From the NCBI RefSeq assembly GCF_056712565.1, contig NZ_CM160072.1: a DNA stretch of 64,000 bases, one strand, 5' to 3'. Of this stretch, positions 13,714 through 64,000 are shown in pieces; positions within the stretch are counted from its first letter, which is position 1; every line of letters starts with the position of its first letter. The position numbers and the translations under genes were made by a program. The notes under the pieces are model-generated. The model saw only the letters and a list, made by a program, of their open reading frames with translations, was not told the origin of the DNA and did not search any database.

Positions 13714-14577
<864 letters not shown>

Positions 14578-14599
14578 TCTTTTTGTTTGAAAAATAAAG

Positions 14600-14628
14600 T
14601 CTTAGCGTTCTGCGTTAAGACTTTTTTT
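14600..14628 (+). terminator. Probable kdsA terminator (imperfect hairpin gtcttagcg..cgttaagac followed by TTTTTTT)
   Basis: Hairpin + U-run 20 bp after kdsA stop. Confidence 0.5.
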
Positions 14629-14643
14629 ATGGGTGCCGGATAC

Positions 14644-14675
14644 AAAAAAGGCCGCAGGCTGTTACCCCTGCGGCC
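14644..14675 (-). terminator. Rho-independent terminator downstream of ldr (ggccgcagg...ctgcggcc hairpin, U-run on minus strand)
   Basis: aaaaaa + GC hairpin on plus strand = hairpin + TTTTTT on minus strand, 3' of ldr. Confidence 0.5.
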
Positions 14676-14724
14676 GGTTTCGGGCGCATATTGCCATCAC
14701 GGCAGCCTGACGCCCGTTTTCACC

Positions 14725-14832
14725 TTACTTCCGGTTACGCCACCAGCCGACAATCGCTGCGGTAATAATTCCCGCCAGGATCGGTGCTGCCAGGTCGTGC
14801 CAGAAAATCATGGCAAACTGCGCGAGCGTCAT
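14725..14832 (-). CDS. ldrA: Ldr type-I toxin peptide (35 aa: MTLAQFAMIFWHDLAAPILAGIITAAIVGWWRNRK)
   Basis: Hand translation of minus strand; below the 60-aa cutoff of the ORF track; sequence matches Ldr family toxins; symbol is by position and copy identity is uncertain. Confidence 0.85.
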   Translation of the reverse strand: MTLAQFAMIFWHDLAAPILAGIITAAIVGWWRNRK

Positions 14833-14884
14833 ATAGCCGCCTTGTTGTAATGACAACATTTTGCGGCTATTCTTGAATTGTTGA

Positions 14885-14950
14885 TGGTTCAAGATTAGCC
14901 CCCGTTCTGTTGTCAGGTTTTACCTCTCAACGTGCGGGGGTTTTCTCTTT
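14885..14950 (+). ncRNA. Candidate Rdl antisense RNA of the ldr locus (approximate)
   Basis: Plus-strand hairpin (cccccg...cggggg) followed by T-rich run at about 14895-14950, antisense to the ldr 5' leader; placement inferred from known LDR organisation, coordinates approximate. Confidence 0.3.
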
Positions 14951-15237
14951 CCAGCAACCAATGCCACCAGGGATAAAGCCCCCGCAACATTGCGCCTCAC
15001 CGGATAACGCCGGCTTGGTGTGGATACTACGTCGCAATTCATCTTCACTTCATCCCTGAAATGTTTGCATTGAAGAGTACATTCCGGCTTTTCAACAGCT
15101 GTTGCAGTGGTTTCGTGCAGGTTGTGGTACAGGCTCGCAATTCTGATTAACGACCTGTCCAGGTAGTATGAAGAAATACAATAAGCAGGAATTTATATTA
15201 TCTCCCCCGATTTCCGTCATCGGAGGAGATATAACTG

Positions 15238-16338
15238 TCAGGCAAATATCGTCATCAAATAGGCGGCAAACAGTGCCAGATGCGCTGCGCCATTGAGCAC
15301 GTTAGTACGTCCGGTGGAGAAGGAGATATGGCACAGCACTAAAGAGGCCACCATCACCACCATTTCTGGCGCACCAAGTGCAAACTGCAATTCGTTACCC
15401 GTCATAAAGGCAATTAGCGTGACGACAGGTACGGTAAGCGAAATGGTTGCTAACACTGAACCAAAGAACAGATTCATCGCGCGCTGGACCTGGTTGTTCA
15501 ACACTGCTTTTAACGCACCTAAACCTTCCGGCGACAGAATCAACAGAGCCACCAGGAAGCCAGTAAAGGCGACAGGGGCATTCATGCTGTCGAGCAATGT
15601 CTCCAGCGGGCTGGCGTTCATTTTGGTCACCGCAATAACGGCAATCAGATGGACAATCAACCAGATAGCATGCCACAGGCTGCTATGGGCAGACGGTTTA
15701 CCGTGGTGCGGGTCGTCATCATCACTGTCATCTTCGTGCTCGTAGACAAATAAACTTTGATGCGTTTTGGTCTGGATCAGCAAAAATACGCCATACATTG
15801 CCGCAGAAATTAATGCTACCAGTAACGCCTGACCTGTTGAAAAATTCGCCGCAGGCAGAGCCATTGGAAATACCAGTACGATTATCGCCAGGGGGAACAG
15901 CGCAATTAAATACTGCTTGATACCAAACAGATTCATATATTGGGTGGCAAACTTGCGTCCGCCCAACAATAATGAAAAGCCAACCAGCCCACCGGTAACA
16001 ATCATAATGATTGAATAGAGCGTATCACGCATTAGCGTTGGCGCGGCGTCGCCGGTTGCCATTAAAGCTGAAATCAAACTGACTTCAAGAATAACCACTG
16101 AAAGGCTAAGAATAAGCGAACCGTAAGGTTCTCCCAGGCGATGGGCTAATACGTCCGCATGACGGACAACACTAAAGGCGCTACTTAAAATACCAATAAG
16201 CGCAAGAAGATTGATGGCAATGACCACTGGTAGTGTCTGGCTGCCTCCCCACAGGAACAGCACTACCAGCGCCAGAACCGGGAAAATAAGCGAAGTCTCC
16301 TTGTGGCGGGTTTTTACCGCCTCTTGAGCATTTGACAT
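15238..16338 (-). CDS. chaA: Na+(K+)/H+ and Ca2+/H+ antiporter ChaA
   Basis: ORF 15238..16425; start placed at ATG 16338 (MSNAQEAVKTRHKETS...), 366 aa. Confidence 0.92.
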   Translation of the reverse strand: MSNAQEAVKTRHKETSLIFPVLALVVLFLWGGSQTLPVVIAINLLALIGILSSAFSVVRHADVLAHRLGEPYGSLILSLSVVILEVSLISALMATGDAAPTLMRDTLYSIIMIVTGGLVGFSLLLGGRKFATQYMNLFGIKQYLIALFPLAIIVLVFPMALPAANFSTGQALLVALISAAMYGVFLLIQTKTHQSLFVYEHEDDSDDDDPHHGKPSAHSSLWHAIWLIVHLIAVIAVTKMNASPLETLLDSMNAPVAFTGFLVALLILSPEGLGALKAVLNNQVQRAMNLFFGSVLATISLTVPVVTLIAFMTGNELQFALGAPEMVVMVASLVLCHISFSTGRTNVLNGAAHLALFAAYLMTIFA

Positions 16339-32256: not shown

Positions 32257-32574
32257 TTATGGGCACGGTGCGGGGGGAGTTGTCGGATGCGCTTCGCTTA
32301 TCCGACCTACAGGGGAGGATATTTTAGGTCCGGTAAACGCGGTGCCATTGGGCAGAATTAGCTCGGAGTAACAGGTTTTGAGTATTTCAGGAAGAAATGG
32401 TGGTGGGGGAAGGATTACTCAGCGCTGCGCGCTTCGCCCTACGGGTCGTTGCCTGCGGCAACGCTCTCTCGCTGGCCTCGAGTCGAACCTTGGTCGAAGC
32501 TTCTCATCCTTCCCCGCATGGGCAGAATATTTAATTGCGGATTCGTTTGAGAATTCAGGGGCTTTTGTAAGCGA
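32257..32574 (-). repeat. tyrT-distal repeat region (rtT/tpr-like); diverged about 178-bp units each beginning with a tRNA-Tyr 3'-end-like segment
   Basis: tggtggtgggggaaggatt (tRNA 3' end) recurs at 32396-32416 as ggtggtgggggaaggatta; a minus-strand reading frame ends ..[19 protein letters not shown] (arginine-rich, protamine-like tpr-type tail). Confidence 0.5.
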
Positions 32575-32659
<85 letters not shown>

Positions 32660-32692
32660 AGGGGTAATTCATATTGTAGGTAATGCTTGAGA

Positions 32693-32777
<85 letters not shown>

Positions 32778-58804: not shown

Positions 58805-58829
58805 CTGGTCATCAAATGACCAGTTTTTT
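58805..58829 (+). terminator. ompW Rho-independent terminator (ctggtcat-caa-atgaccag + TTTTTT); the integrase stop codon lies inside this hairpin
   Basis: Perfect 8-bp stem + U-run; integrase stop codon at 58812-58814. Confidence 0.75.
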
Positions 58830-59942
58830 CCATTCCTTACCGCGTGCGTCGTTGTAAATATCGGTCATTTTTTGATTCGAATGGCCCAGCAAAATTTTGG
58901 TATCAACCCCCTGCTCTCTGAACAATCGCTCTGATAAAGATCTCTGCTCATGGAAAGAGGGTGGGGTGCCATTAGCACGCCAGTTGTAATCCACAGAATC
59001 CCGGGCTTTTTTAAATGCAACGGTTAATGTTGCTGGCTTAACCATCCCGCCGCGCTTAGCTGTCCCTTTCGCGTGATGGTGGTGCAATAGCCACGGACTA
59101 AGAACGCAATCGCGGCAGGATGACACCACATCATCTAGGGTGAGATTTAATTTATCGCAACGCAGAGCCAGAGGGATGGCAATCCGGGTTCCTGTTTTTT
59201 GCTGTTCGACATGAAGATAACCATCCCGGATATCCGAAAATTGCATTTTGCAAATATCTGAAAGGCGCTGGCCTGTCATCAGTGCCAGCAGCATACCGCG
59301 CTGTAAAAAGTAACCATCCTTTTCCGCTGCGTTATAAATCATCATCCACTCATCAAAAGTCAGTCGCTGTCTTGATATCCGCACCTGCGGTTTTTTTGCC
59401 GATTCTGCAGGGTTAAAGCCTGGCGGGACATCGCCCGTTTGCTGAGCTTCCCGGAAAACATCGATCAGTACTTTCCTGAAAATTTGTCCCATTCTGTTAT
59501 GTCCTCTGGCCTTGTACTCTTCCAGTACTGATACCACATCTTTTACGGTTATGGCATCTAACGGTCTGGTGCCAAAACGTTCATCAAATACCCTGAGAGG
59601 GGCCGCTTTCTGTTTCAGCGTGTTGAGTTTGATCTCGCCGTTTTCATATCTTTCCTGTTGAATTTTTCTGTAATTATTCAGAAAAATGGTAACGGTTGAT
59701 GAACCGCCGGTGTCACTAATAATTTTCTCCTGCAGACTGAGCATTTGTTCCATTTGCTGCCGGGCAAGACGGCTGTTCGCTTCTGCTGCAATAGTTTCTG
59801 CCAGTTTCTGGTCAATACTGCCGAGACCGTGATTTTTGCCTGTTATGGGATGCCTGTAACGCCAGTAAACTTTGTTATTTCTTTTGTCAAAATACGGAGA
59901 TAATCCCGGAACATCGGTTTTATATTTTCGCGGGCGCGCCAT
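58812..59942 (-). CDS. int: Lambda-family tyrosine integrase
   Basis: 376-aa ORF; strong resemblance to lambda Int including GQRLSDICKMQFSDI..YLHVEQQKTGTRIAIP and PPSFHEQRSLSERL..LLGHS...IYND (catalytic R, H-x-x-R, Y). Confidence 0.92.
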   Translation of the reverse strand: MARPRKYKTDVPGLSPYFDKRNNKVYWRYRHPITGKNHGLGSIDQKLAETIAAEANSRLARQQMEQMLSLQEKIISDTGGSSTVTIFLNNYRKIQQERYENGEIKLNTLKQKAAPLRVFDERFGTRPLDAITVKDVVSVLEEYKARGHNRMGQIFRKVLIDVFREAQQTGDVPPGFNPAESAKKPQVRISRQRLTFDEWMMIYNAAEKDGYFLQRGMLLALMTGQRLSDICKMQFSDIRDGYLHVEQQKTGTRIAIPLALRCDKLNLTLDDVVSSCRDCVLSPWLLHHHHAKGTAKRGGMVKPATLTVAFKKARDSVDYNWRANGTPPSFHEQRSLSERLFREQGVDTKILLGHSNQKMTDIYNDARGKEWKKLVI

Positions 59943-60168
59943 CTTCCAGTATCCTCTTCAAAGCAGGGTGATCTGTGGCGATCACCTCCGGCTTGTTTAC
60001 CATTCCGACAAAGCGAGCTTGCGGATCCACTCGCCAGCGTCTTCCAACTTTTTTGGGGAGAGGAAATATCATTCCGGCTTTAGCGTATTTACTTAACGTA
60101 CTCGGAGTAGGGACCGGTTCACTGAATTCCTCCTTTGCCCACTCAGTGAGCAGAATAAGTCTTGCCAT
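59920..60168 (-). CDS. xis: Excisionase (lambda Xis-like)
   Basis: 82-aa ORF immediately upstream of and overlapping int; LLTEWAKEEF...IFPLPKKVGRRWRV parallels lambda Xis LTLQEWNARQ...IFPPPVKDGREYLF. Confidence 0.75.
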   Translation of the reverse strand: MARLILLTEWAKEEFSEPVPTPSTLSKYAKAGMIFPLPKKVGRRWRVDPQARFVGMVNKPEVIATDHPALKRILEDGAPAKI

Positions 60169-60232
60169 GAGCGTCGTTCGCTAATCATGGTCGCCGCCAC
60201 TATAGCTGGTGGGCAACGACCGGGGTTGAACA

Positions 60233-60775
60233 TTAAAAATCAGCCTGATTTGGGATCAGTTTTTGCCAGATAGCTGAAACGTATTTTGCCTGGTAACGGG
60301 CGTCATCAAGTGCATTATGGCGCTCACCTTCGAATGGAATAGCCGTTCTGGCATCGAAGTCTATGGCTTTCCCCAGCTCAACGATTGTGCGTACATCGCG
60401 ATCGTTGTAGTAACGCCACGGGCAGGGGATCCCCTGCCGTTCGTATGAACGGCGCAAAATCGTGTTGTCGAAGTTGGCTCCATTTCCCCAAACCTGAACA
60501 AAAAATTCACCGGAGTTTTCGTCGATAAATTCCCGCAATTGTAACAGTGCATCATCTAACGGGATTTCATCGGTCATAATGGCAGATTGCGCTTCGCGTG
60601 ATTGCTTAAGCCACCATTTAATGGTGTCCCGATCAATGACTCCGCCAGCAGTTTCCAGATCGATAGTCTTACTAAATTCCGGTCCCATATCTCCGGTTTG
60701 CGGATCGAAAAATATTGCACCTATTGAGATGATCGGGGCATCAGGATTTTTTCCCATGGTTTCAAGGTCGATCAT
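60233..60775 (-). CDS. Phage-encoded DnaQ-like (DEDDh) 3'-5' exonuclease
   Basis: 180-aa ORF with Exo I (MIDLETMG), Exo II (WGNGANFD) and Exo III (HNALDDARYQ) motifs. Confidence 0.7.
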   Translation of the reverse strand: MIDLETMGKNPDAPIISIGAIFFDPQTGDMGPEFSKTIDLETAGGVIDRDTIKWWLKQSREAQSAIMTDEIPLDDALLQLREFIDENSGEFFVQVWGNGANFDNTILRRSYERQGIPCPWRYYNDRDVRTIVELGKAIDFDARTAIPFEGERHNALDDARYQAKYVSAIWQKLIPNQADF

Positions 60776-60808
60776 TAGATGGTCACACGTCCTGCTGGTG
60801 GATGTGAT

Positions 60809-62704
60809 TTAGTGATGACCGTTCACCTTAATTGGGTGATCTGCCGTCTCGCCAGTTTCATTATCGCTATTGTGATGCTGATTGCCGCCAGTGTTCTCCT
60901 TGTGTGGATGTTCAGCGCCTTCCATTTCCTCCGGATCATCTTCCTGAACTTCAACCTGATACTCTTCATCGAATGTTTCTTGGTATGTTGCGTCGCCCAT
61001 CACCGCGCCACAATCAGGACAGTTGCCGCCGCCGGTCTGACCGCAGGCGGTGCAGGCTTTTTCCACTTCCTGGTGCGCCACTGGTTCAGGCTGTTTCGTT
61101 TCTGGCTCGTTTTGTAACGCATTTGGACTGTTTTGTTCCGCTTTTTGGTAGTTCCGTTCCGATTCATGCTGGTTCTGGCTCACAGAATCGCGGGTCTGGA
61201 TCCCCTTAATCCATTTCGGATCATTCGGGTCACTAATCCCTTCAACAAATTCACCACGTGATGCAGCAAGCAACTTATCGGCGTCAGGCTGGCTGATATT
61301 GGCTGCCTGCATAATTTTGTTTACTTCGTCAGCGGTAACTTTTATCGGCTCTGGTTGTTCTGAATCTTCAGCGGTATCTACATTTTGCGGTAAGCCCGTG
61401 TATGTGCCATTTTTTCGGGCAAAATATTCTTCTTTTGTGATTTCAGTGGCGCCAGCAGCCAGTGCCTTATCCAGACCAGAAAGTTTGTTTGCGCGACCGT
61501 ATTTTTCTCCGTCCTTATCTGCGAAGAGGAAATAGAACGGCCCCTCACGCTCTACAGATGGTTCAGCTTCCGGCGCGGTTTCATTTTTTGGGATATCAGA
61601 TACCTCAGTTTCCACTGCATCAGTTTGTGTTTCTGATGACTGGAGAACATCAACAGTGCCCAGGTCTGTTTCTTCATTCTCAAACACGCCCTTTGTCGTC
61701 AGGTATTCGCAGATATATTTGTTCAGTGCTACGGGATCTTTGTGAATGTCGATCGGACGCTCACGGACAAGGCCAAAAATAGTTTGGCGGTCGTAGCGAA
61801 GGGCATCAGGCTGTTTGCGCATTGATGCCGAGATACGCTTCCAGTCTTCGCGGTCGTTGTCGATAACTTCTTTTTTTGCCCAGCGATGGATGCTGCCGTC
61901 AATGTTTCCGGCATCCACATCACCAGGCCAGAGAGCGTAGGCCAGTTCGTCATCCAGTGTTTTCCATGTCTGCTTGTATTCGCGATGAATGGCAGCAATG
62001 ACCGGGCTGATTTTTCCTGTTGAATTTTCAGTGTACTGTTGATTGGCTCTGGCGCGGGCGAGATCAACAACAGACGTGTATTTTCCGGTTTCCTTGCGTT
62101 CACCTTCGCGACGTTTTTTCCAGATGCGCATCTCTGCCTGAATTTCGGGCCATTTAGCACCAGGAATACATTTATGCTTAACCCACCCAATGGCGTGCAA
62201 CTTAAGATCCGGATACATGGCGTTAACTTCTGGCATTTTCATCAACGCTTCAACGATATGTCCGTCGAATGTTGCCATGTCTTCCTGCAACAATTCCTGT
62301 GCGCTAATAACCATATCAACGGTGATGTTTTCACATGTGTCGAACTTAACCATGACAGCGTTCTGTACTTCAGGGGCCAGCTTGTCAAAAGTGACGTTCA
62401 TCGGATCGGATTCAGTCTCGACCGGAACAAAGGAAGCAGACGCCTCATCCCAGCGGTTTTCCTGCATATATTCAGCATCCCAGGAATCGAGGGCTGGGCG
62501 GGGTATACCGGGTTTATCCTCGCAAACAAGAAATTTATAAGCGCAGTCCTGAGCAGCCGGATAATGTTCCAGGAATTGCCAGTGAAATTTTGCGCGGGCG
62601 CGACGTTCATCACCGGCTTCAATGGCAGTGGCTACAGCGACGGCACCTTCTTCCTTTATTGCCTGTTCGTCCGGAATGGCGGCGCAAATAAAGACTTTAC
62701 TCAT
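60809..62704 (-). CDS. Large acidic hypothetical protein (631 aa) of prophage early region; C-terminal Cys4 zinc-ribbon-like motif (CTACGQ...CPDCG) and His-rich tail
   Basis: Long uninterrupted ORF co-oriented with int/xis/exo; GAGGT Shine-Dalgarno 8 nt upstream of ATG at 62704; no family recognised by eye. Confidence 0.7.
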   Translation of the reverse strand: MSKVFICAAIPDEQAIKEEGAVAVATAIEAGDERRARAKFHWQFLEHYPAAQDCAYKFLVCEDKPGIPRPALDSWDAEYMQENRWDEASASFVPVETESDPMNVTFDKLAPEVQNAVMVKFDTCENITVDMVISAQELLQEDMATFDGHIVEALMKMPEVNAMYPDLKLHAIGWVKHKCIPGAKWPEIQAEMRIWKKRREGERKETGKYTSVVDLARARANQQYTENSTGKISPVIAAIHREYKQTWKTLDDELAYALWPGDVDAGNIDGSIHRWAKKEVIDNDREDWKRISASMRKQPDALRYDRQTIFGLVRERPIDIHKDPVALNKYICEYLTTKGVFENEETDLGTVDVLQSSETQTDAVETEVSDIPKNETAPEAEPSVEREGPFYFLFADKDGEKYGRANKLSGLDKALAAGATEITKEEYFARKNGTYTGLPQNVDTAEDSEQPEPIKVTADEVNKIMQAANISQPDADKLLAASRGEFVEGISDPNDPKWIKGIQTRDSVSQNQHESERNYQKAEQNSPNALQNEPETKQPEPVAHQEVEKACTACGQTGGGNCPDCGAVMGDATYQETFDEEYQVEVQEDDPEEMEGAEHPHKENTGGNQHHNSDNETGETADHPIKVNGHH

Positions 62705-62796
62705 TTTGTTTTACCTCATTACAGATTTAAGGGTGAACAAATCCCTGCCATTGCTGGCATATAAGAATGAAATCGGATGTTTATTACGGAACTGTT

Positions 62797-62988
62797 TTAA
62801 AGACCTGCCGGGATTTCGTTATTATCCTGGTGAATAACTTTATCGACCGGGTAACAGTTACCGGGAATTTTCTGTTCGGTTGCTGCAGTCACACACTCCT
62901 GCATTGTCCTGTGAACACTGACTGCAGTATCAACTGGCTCTCCGGAAACAAGAAAAACTGTCAGAACAAGTGCAAATGCTGTATTCAT
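62797..62988 (-). CDS. Small secreted/membrane protein (63 aa, signal-peptide-like N-terminus MNTAFALVLTVFLVSG, two Cys)
   Basis: ORF 62797..63042; start placed at ATG 62988 with AGGA Shine-Dalgarno 9 nt upstream. Confidence 0.45.
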   Translation of the reverse strand: MNTAFALVLTVFLVSGEPVDTAVSVHRTMQECVTAATEQKIPGNCYPVDKVIHQDNNEIPAGL

Positions 62989-63738
62989 TGCCAGCATCCT
63001 TTTTGTATCGGACGTAAACGGGCCAACATTGAAAGAATGCATATTTTATTTAATAGCTCCCGTTCGTGTTTTCTCTTGTTAATGGCATCTTCAGTAAATA
63101 CAGGGTTACTGATAGTGACACCAATTTCAAAACAACCTTCAGACGTATTAACGTTTGGTAATAACGTTTCCATTATCGCGTCCTCAACAATGAATTTTGT
63201 GATGCGGTGCCTGGTGCTTCCAGGTGACGTTAACCAGTTAACAATTAACGCCGGATACAGAGAATCCACCCATAACACTGTTTTTGGTTTTAACTGTTCC
63301 GCGTGCGCTTAGCCGCATTCACCGCATCACAAAATTCACTTTAAAAAGGGCGGCAGAGCAGTCACGGAGTAAAACTGATACCGCCAAACGTCACCAGAAA
63401 ATTGATAACAGAGGGCGTTGCAGCGGGGTTGTCACTTAAGCGTATGGTCAACCTGACAACCCGGTGTCCTCAACGGTGGAAGGAATAACCCCGCCATACT
63501 TACCGCCGCGCCATTTCGCGGATTGCCACAACCGGAAGCGCACGGTCGACGAAAATTTAACGACAGGCTATCTATGAACCAGCTACCTCGCCGTGCGCTT
63601 TCGCGTTATGGTCTGACTTTTCAGGGAAATATCCTTTCAGTAAACTGTCAGTGCCGGATGCTCACCCGTGTCCGGCGCACGCACTCCACCTCACCCGTGG
63701 AGAACTCCTTAATTACCAACCTTAGCTTCGTTGGTTAG

Positions 63739-63960
63739 CTATTCACGCGGGTATGTAATCATTCTGGCAATGCTTAATGCCGCTGCTTTTTCCAGATTGG
63801 TGATATCCTGCTCCAGAGCGGACAGATTTTCAGCCTGCTTAGCCCTGGCTTCATTGGCCCATTTCAAATCCTGCGCTGCATTAATTTTCTGGCGCATCCA
63901 CTCATAAAGTTCATCATTGGTATAGTCTGGCGCGATGATGACGGGTTCTCGTTTCTGCAT
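63739..63960 (-). CDS. Hypothetical phage protein (73 aa, predicted helical, ..LSALEQDITNLEKAAA..)
   Basis: ORF with GAGGAA Shine-Dalgarno 7 nt upstream of ATG; co-oriented with prophage early genes. Confidence 0.5.
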   Translation of the reverse strand: MQKREPVIIAPDYTNDELYEWMRQKINAAQDLKWANEARAKQAENLSALEQDITNLEKAAALSIARMITYPRE

Positions 63961-64000
63961 ACTGATTCCTCGCGGTGCTGCTTCGCTTATCAGCCGTTAG

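Follow-up and report, generated by a model that had tools for sequence, protein, structure and literature searches.

The interval between kdsA and chaA in the DNA that we analyzed, a stretch of 64,000 nucleotides (the window), holds a single ldr/rdl type I toxin-antitoxin module that is intact and probably functional, and we regard it as the one-unit allele of a locus where recombination produces between one and four units (probability about 0.9). In the mechanism that we propose, the minus strand would give rise to an mRNA of ~370 nt, with a 5′ UTR of ~185 nt, from which Ldr, an inner-membrane toxin of 35 aa, would be translated. From the plus strand would come Rdl, an RNA of 66 nt that matches the middle part of the ldr 5′ UTR with perfect complementarity and could keep the toxin untranslated. 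The number of units would vary, from 1 to 4, by unequal homologous recombination between the long direct repeats of ~535 bp.

A single ldr/rdl unit between kdsA and chaA

The gap runs from the end of kdsA, at position 14577, to the border of chaA. It measures 660 bp (14578-15237) and contains one Ldr ORF of 35 aa and one Rdl antisense RNA. The features of the gap and of its right border are the following:

14596-14624, plus strand: intrinsic terminator of kdsA (hairpin and T-run), from a terminator scan; it aligns to the K-12 left flank.
14642-15114, no strand assigned: single LDR repeat core of 473 bp, from blastn against the K-12 interval; it is homologous to each of the three K-12 units.
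14650-14675, minus strand: ldr mRNA terminator of the intrinsic type, GGCCGCAGG...CCTGCGGCC and then a T-run, from a terminator scan.
14725-14832, minus strand: ldr toxin ORF, 35 aa and stop, with Gly29, from ORF translation, Pfam and a structure-database match.
14837-14843, minus strand: Shine-Dalgarno-like element AAGGCGG, with the ldr ATG 4 nt downstream, read from the sequence.
14845-14873, plus strand: putative rdl promoter (TTGTAA-17 nt-TATTCT), which stops 7 nt short of the 5′ end of Rdl, read from the sequence.
14881-14946, plus strand: Rdl antisense RNA (antitoxin), 66 nt, from Rfam RF01813 (rdlD), its fold and its K-12 rdlA counterpart.
15024-15029, minus strand: inferred -10 box of ldr, TAGTAT; inter-genus homology runs exactly up to this element.
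15200-15230, minus strand: inverted repeat just 3′ of the chaA stop codon, read from the sequence; it aligns to the K-12 right flank.
15238-16338, minus strand: chaA, the gene bounding the gap on the right.

An earlier note, made from the sequence of this DNA, had described the gap as holding a ldr/rdl type I toxin-antitoxin unit with only one Ldr ORF (35 aa, Gly29), at a place where K-12 carries a tandem triplet. The alignment to K-12 and the search for additional copies that it proposed were both carried out here, and they agree with this description. In K-12 MG1655, the pairs ldrA/rdlA, ldrB/rdlB, and ldrC/rdlC are annotated in a kdsA-chaA interval of 1,729 bp, as units with a period of 535 bp and 97% mutual identity. 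The interval in the window aligns as the K-12 left flank, one core, 97 to 98% identical to K-12 units A, B, and C in blastn, and then the K-12 right flank; the K-12 inter-unit junction (~62-70 bp) is absent from the window. The kdsA terminator constitutes the left unique flank common to the window and K-12. The inverted repeat, which is probably the terminator of chaA, sits in the right unique flank, common with the unit C side of K-12. Across the 64-kb window, no second ldr/rdl was found by tblastn with LdrA-type and LdrD peptides, by blastn with the repeat core, or by the Rfam scan. The LDR-A/B/C units of K-12, described by Kawano et al. 2002 (as cited in PMC12643268 and PMC8309996), are thus like the window unit in locus, orientation, and position of Rdl, and differ from it in number, three against one.

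Short-read assemblies can collapse tandem repeats, and one could ask whether the single copy is an artefact of this kind, in which 535-bp repeats were merged. We regard this as extremely improbable. A closed complete genome has the identical sequence, the unit stands between unique flanks without junction sequence, and the one-unit structure recurs in ~1,324 independent complete genomes, some of which are only 95 to 98% identical. Over the compared stretches the window has 100% identity to E. coli ATCC 11775, where RefSeq already annotates the Ldr gene.

The toxin

The Ldr peptide (MTLAQFAMIFWHDLAAPILAGIITAAIVGWWRNRK) is matched over residues 1-35 of 35 by Pfam PF13940 (Ldr_toxin), with 87.7 bits against a cut-off of 27 (E=5e-25), whereas an NCBIfam search with the same peptide gave no match. 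It shares 57% identity with LdrD, for which there is an NMR structure (PDB 5LBJ), and is identical to RefSeq WP_000170954.1, a protein also encoded in O157:H7 and O104:H4. Relative to the K-12 LDR-A/B/C toxins, it carries S29G when compared with LdrA and LdrC, and T9I when compared with LdrB. With ~35 aa, a single transmembrane helix, the FWHDLAAP motif, and a Trp followed by a basic C terminus, it has the features of Ldr/Rdl family toxins. The superfamily Fst/Ldr is marked by a conserved tryptophan after the predicted transmembrane helix and then a cluster of charged residues (PMC2887945), and the C terminus read from the translation, ...IVGWWRNRK, fits this pattern. LdrA itself is an inner-membrane toxin of 35 aa, under which ATP synthesis collapses (PMC12643268, PMC8309996).

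The antisense RNA

The Rfam model RF01813 (rdlD) matches Rdl over its full length (1-66 of 66), scoring 83.6 bits where the gathering score is 50 (E=3.9e-16) and without unpaired stem positions. The predicted fold has a minimum free energy of -27.3 kcal/mol (z=-4.5), and no shuffled sequence folds equally well. Rdl is hence a cis-encoded RNA of ~66 nt with the long hairpin of its family, and this hairpin together with the UUUUCU that follows forms a terminator. The plus-strand hairpin and T-run at about 14895-14950, which the earlier note took for a candidate Rdl terminator, proves to be the Rdl stem-loop and terminator, given the RF01813 match and the z score of the fold. Rdl lies opposite the ldr 5′ UTR, upstream of the coding sequence and separated by a gap of 48 nt from the ldr start codon at 14832, a geometry equal to that of the annotated ldrA/rdlA of K-12. 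The elements of the putative rdl promoter are conserved in Escherichia, Kluyvera, and Pseudocitrobacter. A scan of the interval for the generic sigma-70 consensus reported no promoter, and both the rdl and the ldr promoters were read from conservation.

Units differ most of all in the 5′ tail of Rdl (14878-14887), and thereby in the part of the ldr 5′ UTR opposite to it. Three alleles of this tail (TGTTGATGG, TGTTCT-GG, and GTGTCTG-GT) have been reshuffled between strains and between positions in the array, and are shared with Escherichia sp. E1V33. The window carries the third type, TGTTGATGG, which is found in no K-12 unit. The tail allele could determine which Rdl acts on which ldr copy.

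The unit as a functional module

In K-12, RNA expression, toxicity, and repression by Rdl have been established for LdrA and LdrD (PMC12643268, PMC8309996, bioRxiv 10.1101/510842). There, rdlA represses the LdrA membrane toxin translationally (PMC12643268), and RNase III cleaves a duplex that ldrD and rdlD form in vivo (bioRxiv 10.1101/510842). By homology to this work, the window strain may be expected to show the same expression, toxicity, and repression; its peptide is 1 aa from a K-12 Ldr and the signals are conserved. Rdl would pair with ldr mRNA positions ~72-137, upstream of the Shine-Dalgarno sequence, so that repression would have to be indirect, possibly through blocking of a leader or a standby site and/or through RNase III cleavage. 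According to one review, citing Kawano 2012, RdlD blocks the leader ORF ldrX, to which the translation of ldrD is coupled (PMC8167048), while another calls the mechanism of Rdl repression unknown (PMC8309996).

Could the remaining unit instead be a decaying remnant, with a non-functional toxin or an orphan antitoxin? Damaged units do exist elsewhere, such as the second unit of E. coli O157:H7 FRIK2533, which lacks 6 nt of the Rdl stem, and antitoxin-only loci are known for zor/orz (PMC11264685). In the window, however, the toxin ORF is intact and its product is the WP_000170954.1 protein shared with O157:H7 and O104:H4, Rdl matches the full model, and the Shine-Dalgarno sequence, the -10 boxes, and the terminators fit the family consensus. 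Unlike in zor/orz, no antitoxin-only state was seen here at the ldr locus. We therefore consider decay very unlikely, and an intact module the better description of the unit. The FRIK2533 lesion is in the chaA-proximal second unit (L051, ~1655-1665), where the gap in the Rdl stem reads AGCC------CTG, and it should weaken the antitoxin hairpin.

Copy number among E. coli genomes

We searched 5,426 complete E. coli genomes with queries of one, two, three, and four units, requiring a coverage of at least 80%. The search joins non-redundant BLAST pieces, and therefore a query of n units is covered at this level by genomes with n units or fewer; read in this way, the queries were covered by 1,324, 2,834, 5,135, and 5,168 genomes, respectively. 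The resulting shares, which depend on how the search joins BLAST pieces, are as follows:

1 unit: ~1,324 genomes (24%).
2 units: ~1,510 genomes (28%).
3 units: ~2,301 genomes (42%).
4 units: ~33 genomes (0.6%).
Otherwise disrupted, copy number unclassified: ~257 genomes (~5%).

These fractions agree with evenly spaced samples of the match lists. As an independent check, the K-12 inter-unit junction was found in 4,052 of the 5,426 genomes and was absent from 1,374. The one-copy form is hence nothing out of the ordinary in E. coli, since roughly one complete genome in four has it. The uropathogen F11 and uk_P46212 are among the strains with one copy, while O157:H7 has two units and O104:H4 three. 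We take both F11 and uk_P46212 to belong to phylogroup B2, and uk_P46212 to be an ST131 strain. In the literature that we searched, we found no published survey of ldr copy number per strain. Some of the unclassified genomes are explained by insertions. In E. coli 23CRST050, an IS200C transposase gene (L052, 3439-3897) separates the first LDR unit from the kdsA terminator, and IS200C is also present at kdsA-chaA in two further genomes (H48 and H147).

Recombination between units and the direction of change

Two strains resemble the products expected when a unit is lost from an array like that of K-12. In strain G6/7, the one unit is that of K-12 unit C at the informative sites, including a rare 1-nt deletion, and yet it is joined to the kdsA flank and has the left-boundary base of unit A. 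Strain M15 and an artificial "A+C" version of the K-12 locus, made by taking out one period (essentially unit B), are 100% identical over 2,794 nt. The two-unit locus of M15 (NZ_CP185789.1, 379096-381889) is apparently the outcome of a very recent loss of one unit, natural or in the laboratory. Some single-copy strains are thus clean collapse products of a K-12-like triplet. Furthermore, the units are mosaics of the three Rdl 5′-tail alleles, at differing positions in differing strains. The mosaic units and the clean collapse products together support unequal homologous recombination between units as the process that drives copy-number change at kdsA-chaA. The suggestion of the earlier note that the copy number differs from K-12 in a way consistent with recombination between the repeats is in line with the G6/7 and M15 products, and with a window that lacks the junction.

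Whether the lineage of the window reached one copy by loss is a separate question. The single unit could be the ancestral state, with the arrays of two to four units, the K-12 triplet included, amplified later and nothing lost here. There are reasons to take this seriously. One unit is found in the divergent E. coli E69, in Kluyvera genomosp. 3, K. georgiana, Pseudocitrobacter faecalis, and P. vendiensis, so that the loci of Kluyvera and Pseudocitrobacter (five loci) are mostly single, one Pseudocitrobacter MAG having two units. In addition, the unit closest to that of the window is the chaA-proximal copy of the two-copy strain CB7453 (4 differences in 467 nt), and given this copy the window unit has no marker that demands two source copies. 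On the other hand, two units each are present in the nearest sampled outgroups, E. whittamii and Escherichia sp. E1V33, and in E1V33 the two Rdl-tail alleles, as well as their order, are those of many E. coli strains. The K-12 junction and the chaA-side flank are, by eye, only about half matched, and this divergence, if real, implies an old duplication. Finally, the units of single-copy strains differ in composition, that of uk_P46212 being composed differently from the window unit, and repeated collapse fits this better than one retained ancestor. On balance, ancestral singleness is a serious contender at somewhat under even odds, and we slightly favor arrival at one copy by loss over a lineage that never amplified.

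Two further arguments were tried and given up. From K-12, O157, and one other strain, the window unit had looked like a chimera of an A × C crossover (breakpoint 14887-15032), with a first-copy left part and a last-copy right part. When six more strains were added, the markers turned out not to be position-specific and the last copy of CB7453 matched throughout, and the proof of an A × C deletion was therefore dropped. The polarity of the Rdl-tail alleles was sought in Kluyvera and Pseudocitrobacter, and this failed because both allele types occur there. The degenerate DNA pattern for FWHDLAAP that was used to find loci misses units with other codons, and the kdsA-proximal first unit of E1V33, which encodes FWHNLAAP, escaped the pattern and was found by blastn alone.

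Signals, candidate leader ORFs, and predicted fold of the ldr mRNA

Escherichia, Kluyvera, and Pseudocitrobacter all conserve the -10 boxes, the Shine-Dalgarno sequence, the Rdl hairpin, and both terminators. In 49 Ldr loci, the GGCGG of the Shine-Dalgarno sequence is nearly invariant and the stem of the ldr terminator is conserved, with compensatory changes. The -10 box of ldr has the variant TAGAAT in other genera. Transcription probably starts near 15016-15019, and the end of the homology at the -10 box points to an ldr mRNA of ~372 nt. Its 5′ UTR includes an ATG ORF of 25 codons (14913-14990, minus strand), whose 3′ end lies under Rdl and whose frame is broken in K-12 unit C by a 1-nt deletion. 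In E. coli units of the A/B/C type, a further ATG (14859-14857) precedes the ldr start by 9 codons, in the same frame.

The predicted full-length mRNA (14645-15017, minus strand) folds with -163.6 kcal/mol (z=-5.6). In this prediction, the Shine-Dalgarno and start region are paired to the 3′ UTR, and a GGCGC/GCGCC helix joins the 5′ and 3′ ends. RNAalifold recovered the same helices from 49 Ldr-family loci of Escherichia, Citrobacter, Kluyvera, Pseudocitrobacter, and Salmonella, in which both UTRs are more conserved than the coding sequence. In the alignment, 98.4% of the cells pair in the named structure, against 30 to 61% when the partners are slid. The covariation of the long-range helices in these 49 loci is not significant relative to shuffles, with just 3 pairs changing on both sides; the shuffles equal the observed pairing because the alignment columns are nearly invariant. 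A fold-back of the 3′ UTR onto the ribosome-binding site of ldr, conserved across genera, is a plausible reading of this model. A bolder proposal is that this fold-back (3′ UTR ~14690-14716 with the Shine-Dalgarno and start region) silences the ldr mRNA without Rdl, while the Rdl tail sets the specificity between Rdl and ldr; we offer it tentatively and would sooner bet against it than for it. If true, the fold-back would be an activation-by-processing mechanism like that of hok or aapA1, and the reviews that we read describe none for Ldr. A strain that is naturally single-copy provides a clean background for both ideas, the fold-back and the specificity of the tail.

Relation to known systems

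Judged from its sequence, the window unit can be classed in the Ldr/Rdl family by every feature that we compared except tandem repetition, with one unit in both the interval and the window. Tandem repetition defines the name "LDR" and not the toxin-antitoxin family, and ldrD is also solitary in K-12. This ldrD-rdlD pair, at the bcsG locus, is experimentally characterized and belongs to the Rfam seed. It shares with the window unit the Pfam and Rfam families, the gene layout, and conserved blocks in the 5′ and 3′ UTRs, but it occupies another chromosomal locus and falls in the LdrD group, whereas the window unit falls in the LdrB group (PMC2887945). The main phenotype reported for LdrD is nucleoid condensation, in contrast to the drop in ATP reported for LdrA (PMC8309996).

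Other systems of E. coli, namely zor/orz, ibs/sib, and tisB/istR-1, are also tandem units of a toxin and a small RNA whose number varies among strains, but they involve other toxin and RNA families. Copy-number surveys exist for zor/orz and tisB (PMC11264685), and zor/orz has one copy in 25% of genomes and two in 42% (PMC11264685). The hok/sok systems, on plasmid R1 and on chromosomes, resemble ldr/rdl in that the 5′ part of a stable toxin mRNA is faced by an antisense RNA encoded in cis, and in that coupling to a leader ORF has been proposed, mok for hok and ldrX for ldr (PMC8167048). The fold-back inhibition of hok resembles the pairing between the 3′ end and the initiation region of the ldr mRNA, which in ldr is predicted. 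The toxin families are unrelated. In a 1-kb search, the ldr 5′ UTR (14830-14983, minus strand) gave a hit to the sok/hok region model RF01794 with 27 bits (E=7e-4), below the gathering score of 59, and membership in hok/sok was rejected.

The module, the locus, and the variability of its copy number are already known, and a paper of 2010 (PMC2887945) described how Ldr loci were duplicated and lost in a lineage-specific manner. Since the system is known, the gene is annotated in RefSeq, and about one in four complete E. coli genomes has the same form, the single unit is in itself of little import. The shares of unit numbers could serve as a baseline for relating the dosage of toxin-antitoxin modules of type I to lineage or pathotype. 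Moreover, single-copy strains are handy for the genetics of ldr/rdl, since their locus has no paralogous unit that could cross-repress.

Other features of the window

Elsewhere in the window, an RtT RNA (32398-32777, minus strand; 129.4 bits) lies downstream of two tRNA genes, which we take to be the tyrT-tyrV arrangement, presumably expected ~17 kb from chaA. A lambdoid prophage adjoins ompW at 58812-64000, with genes for an integrase (~58812-59942), an excisionase, an exonuclease, ydfD, and dicB (~62985-63173). It also includes a DicF RNA at 63348-63399 (Rfam, 76.7 bits); in K-12, DicF presumably belongs to the Qin prophage, far from this region.
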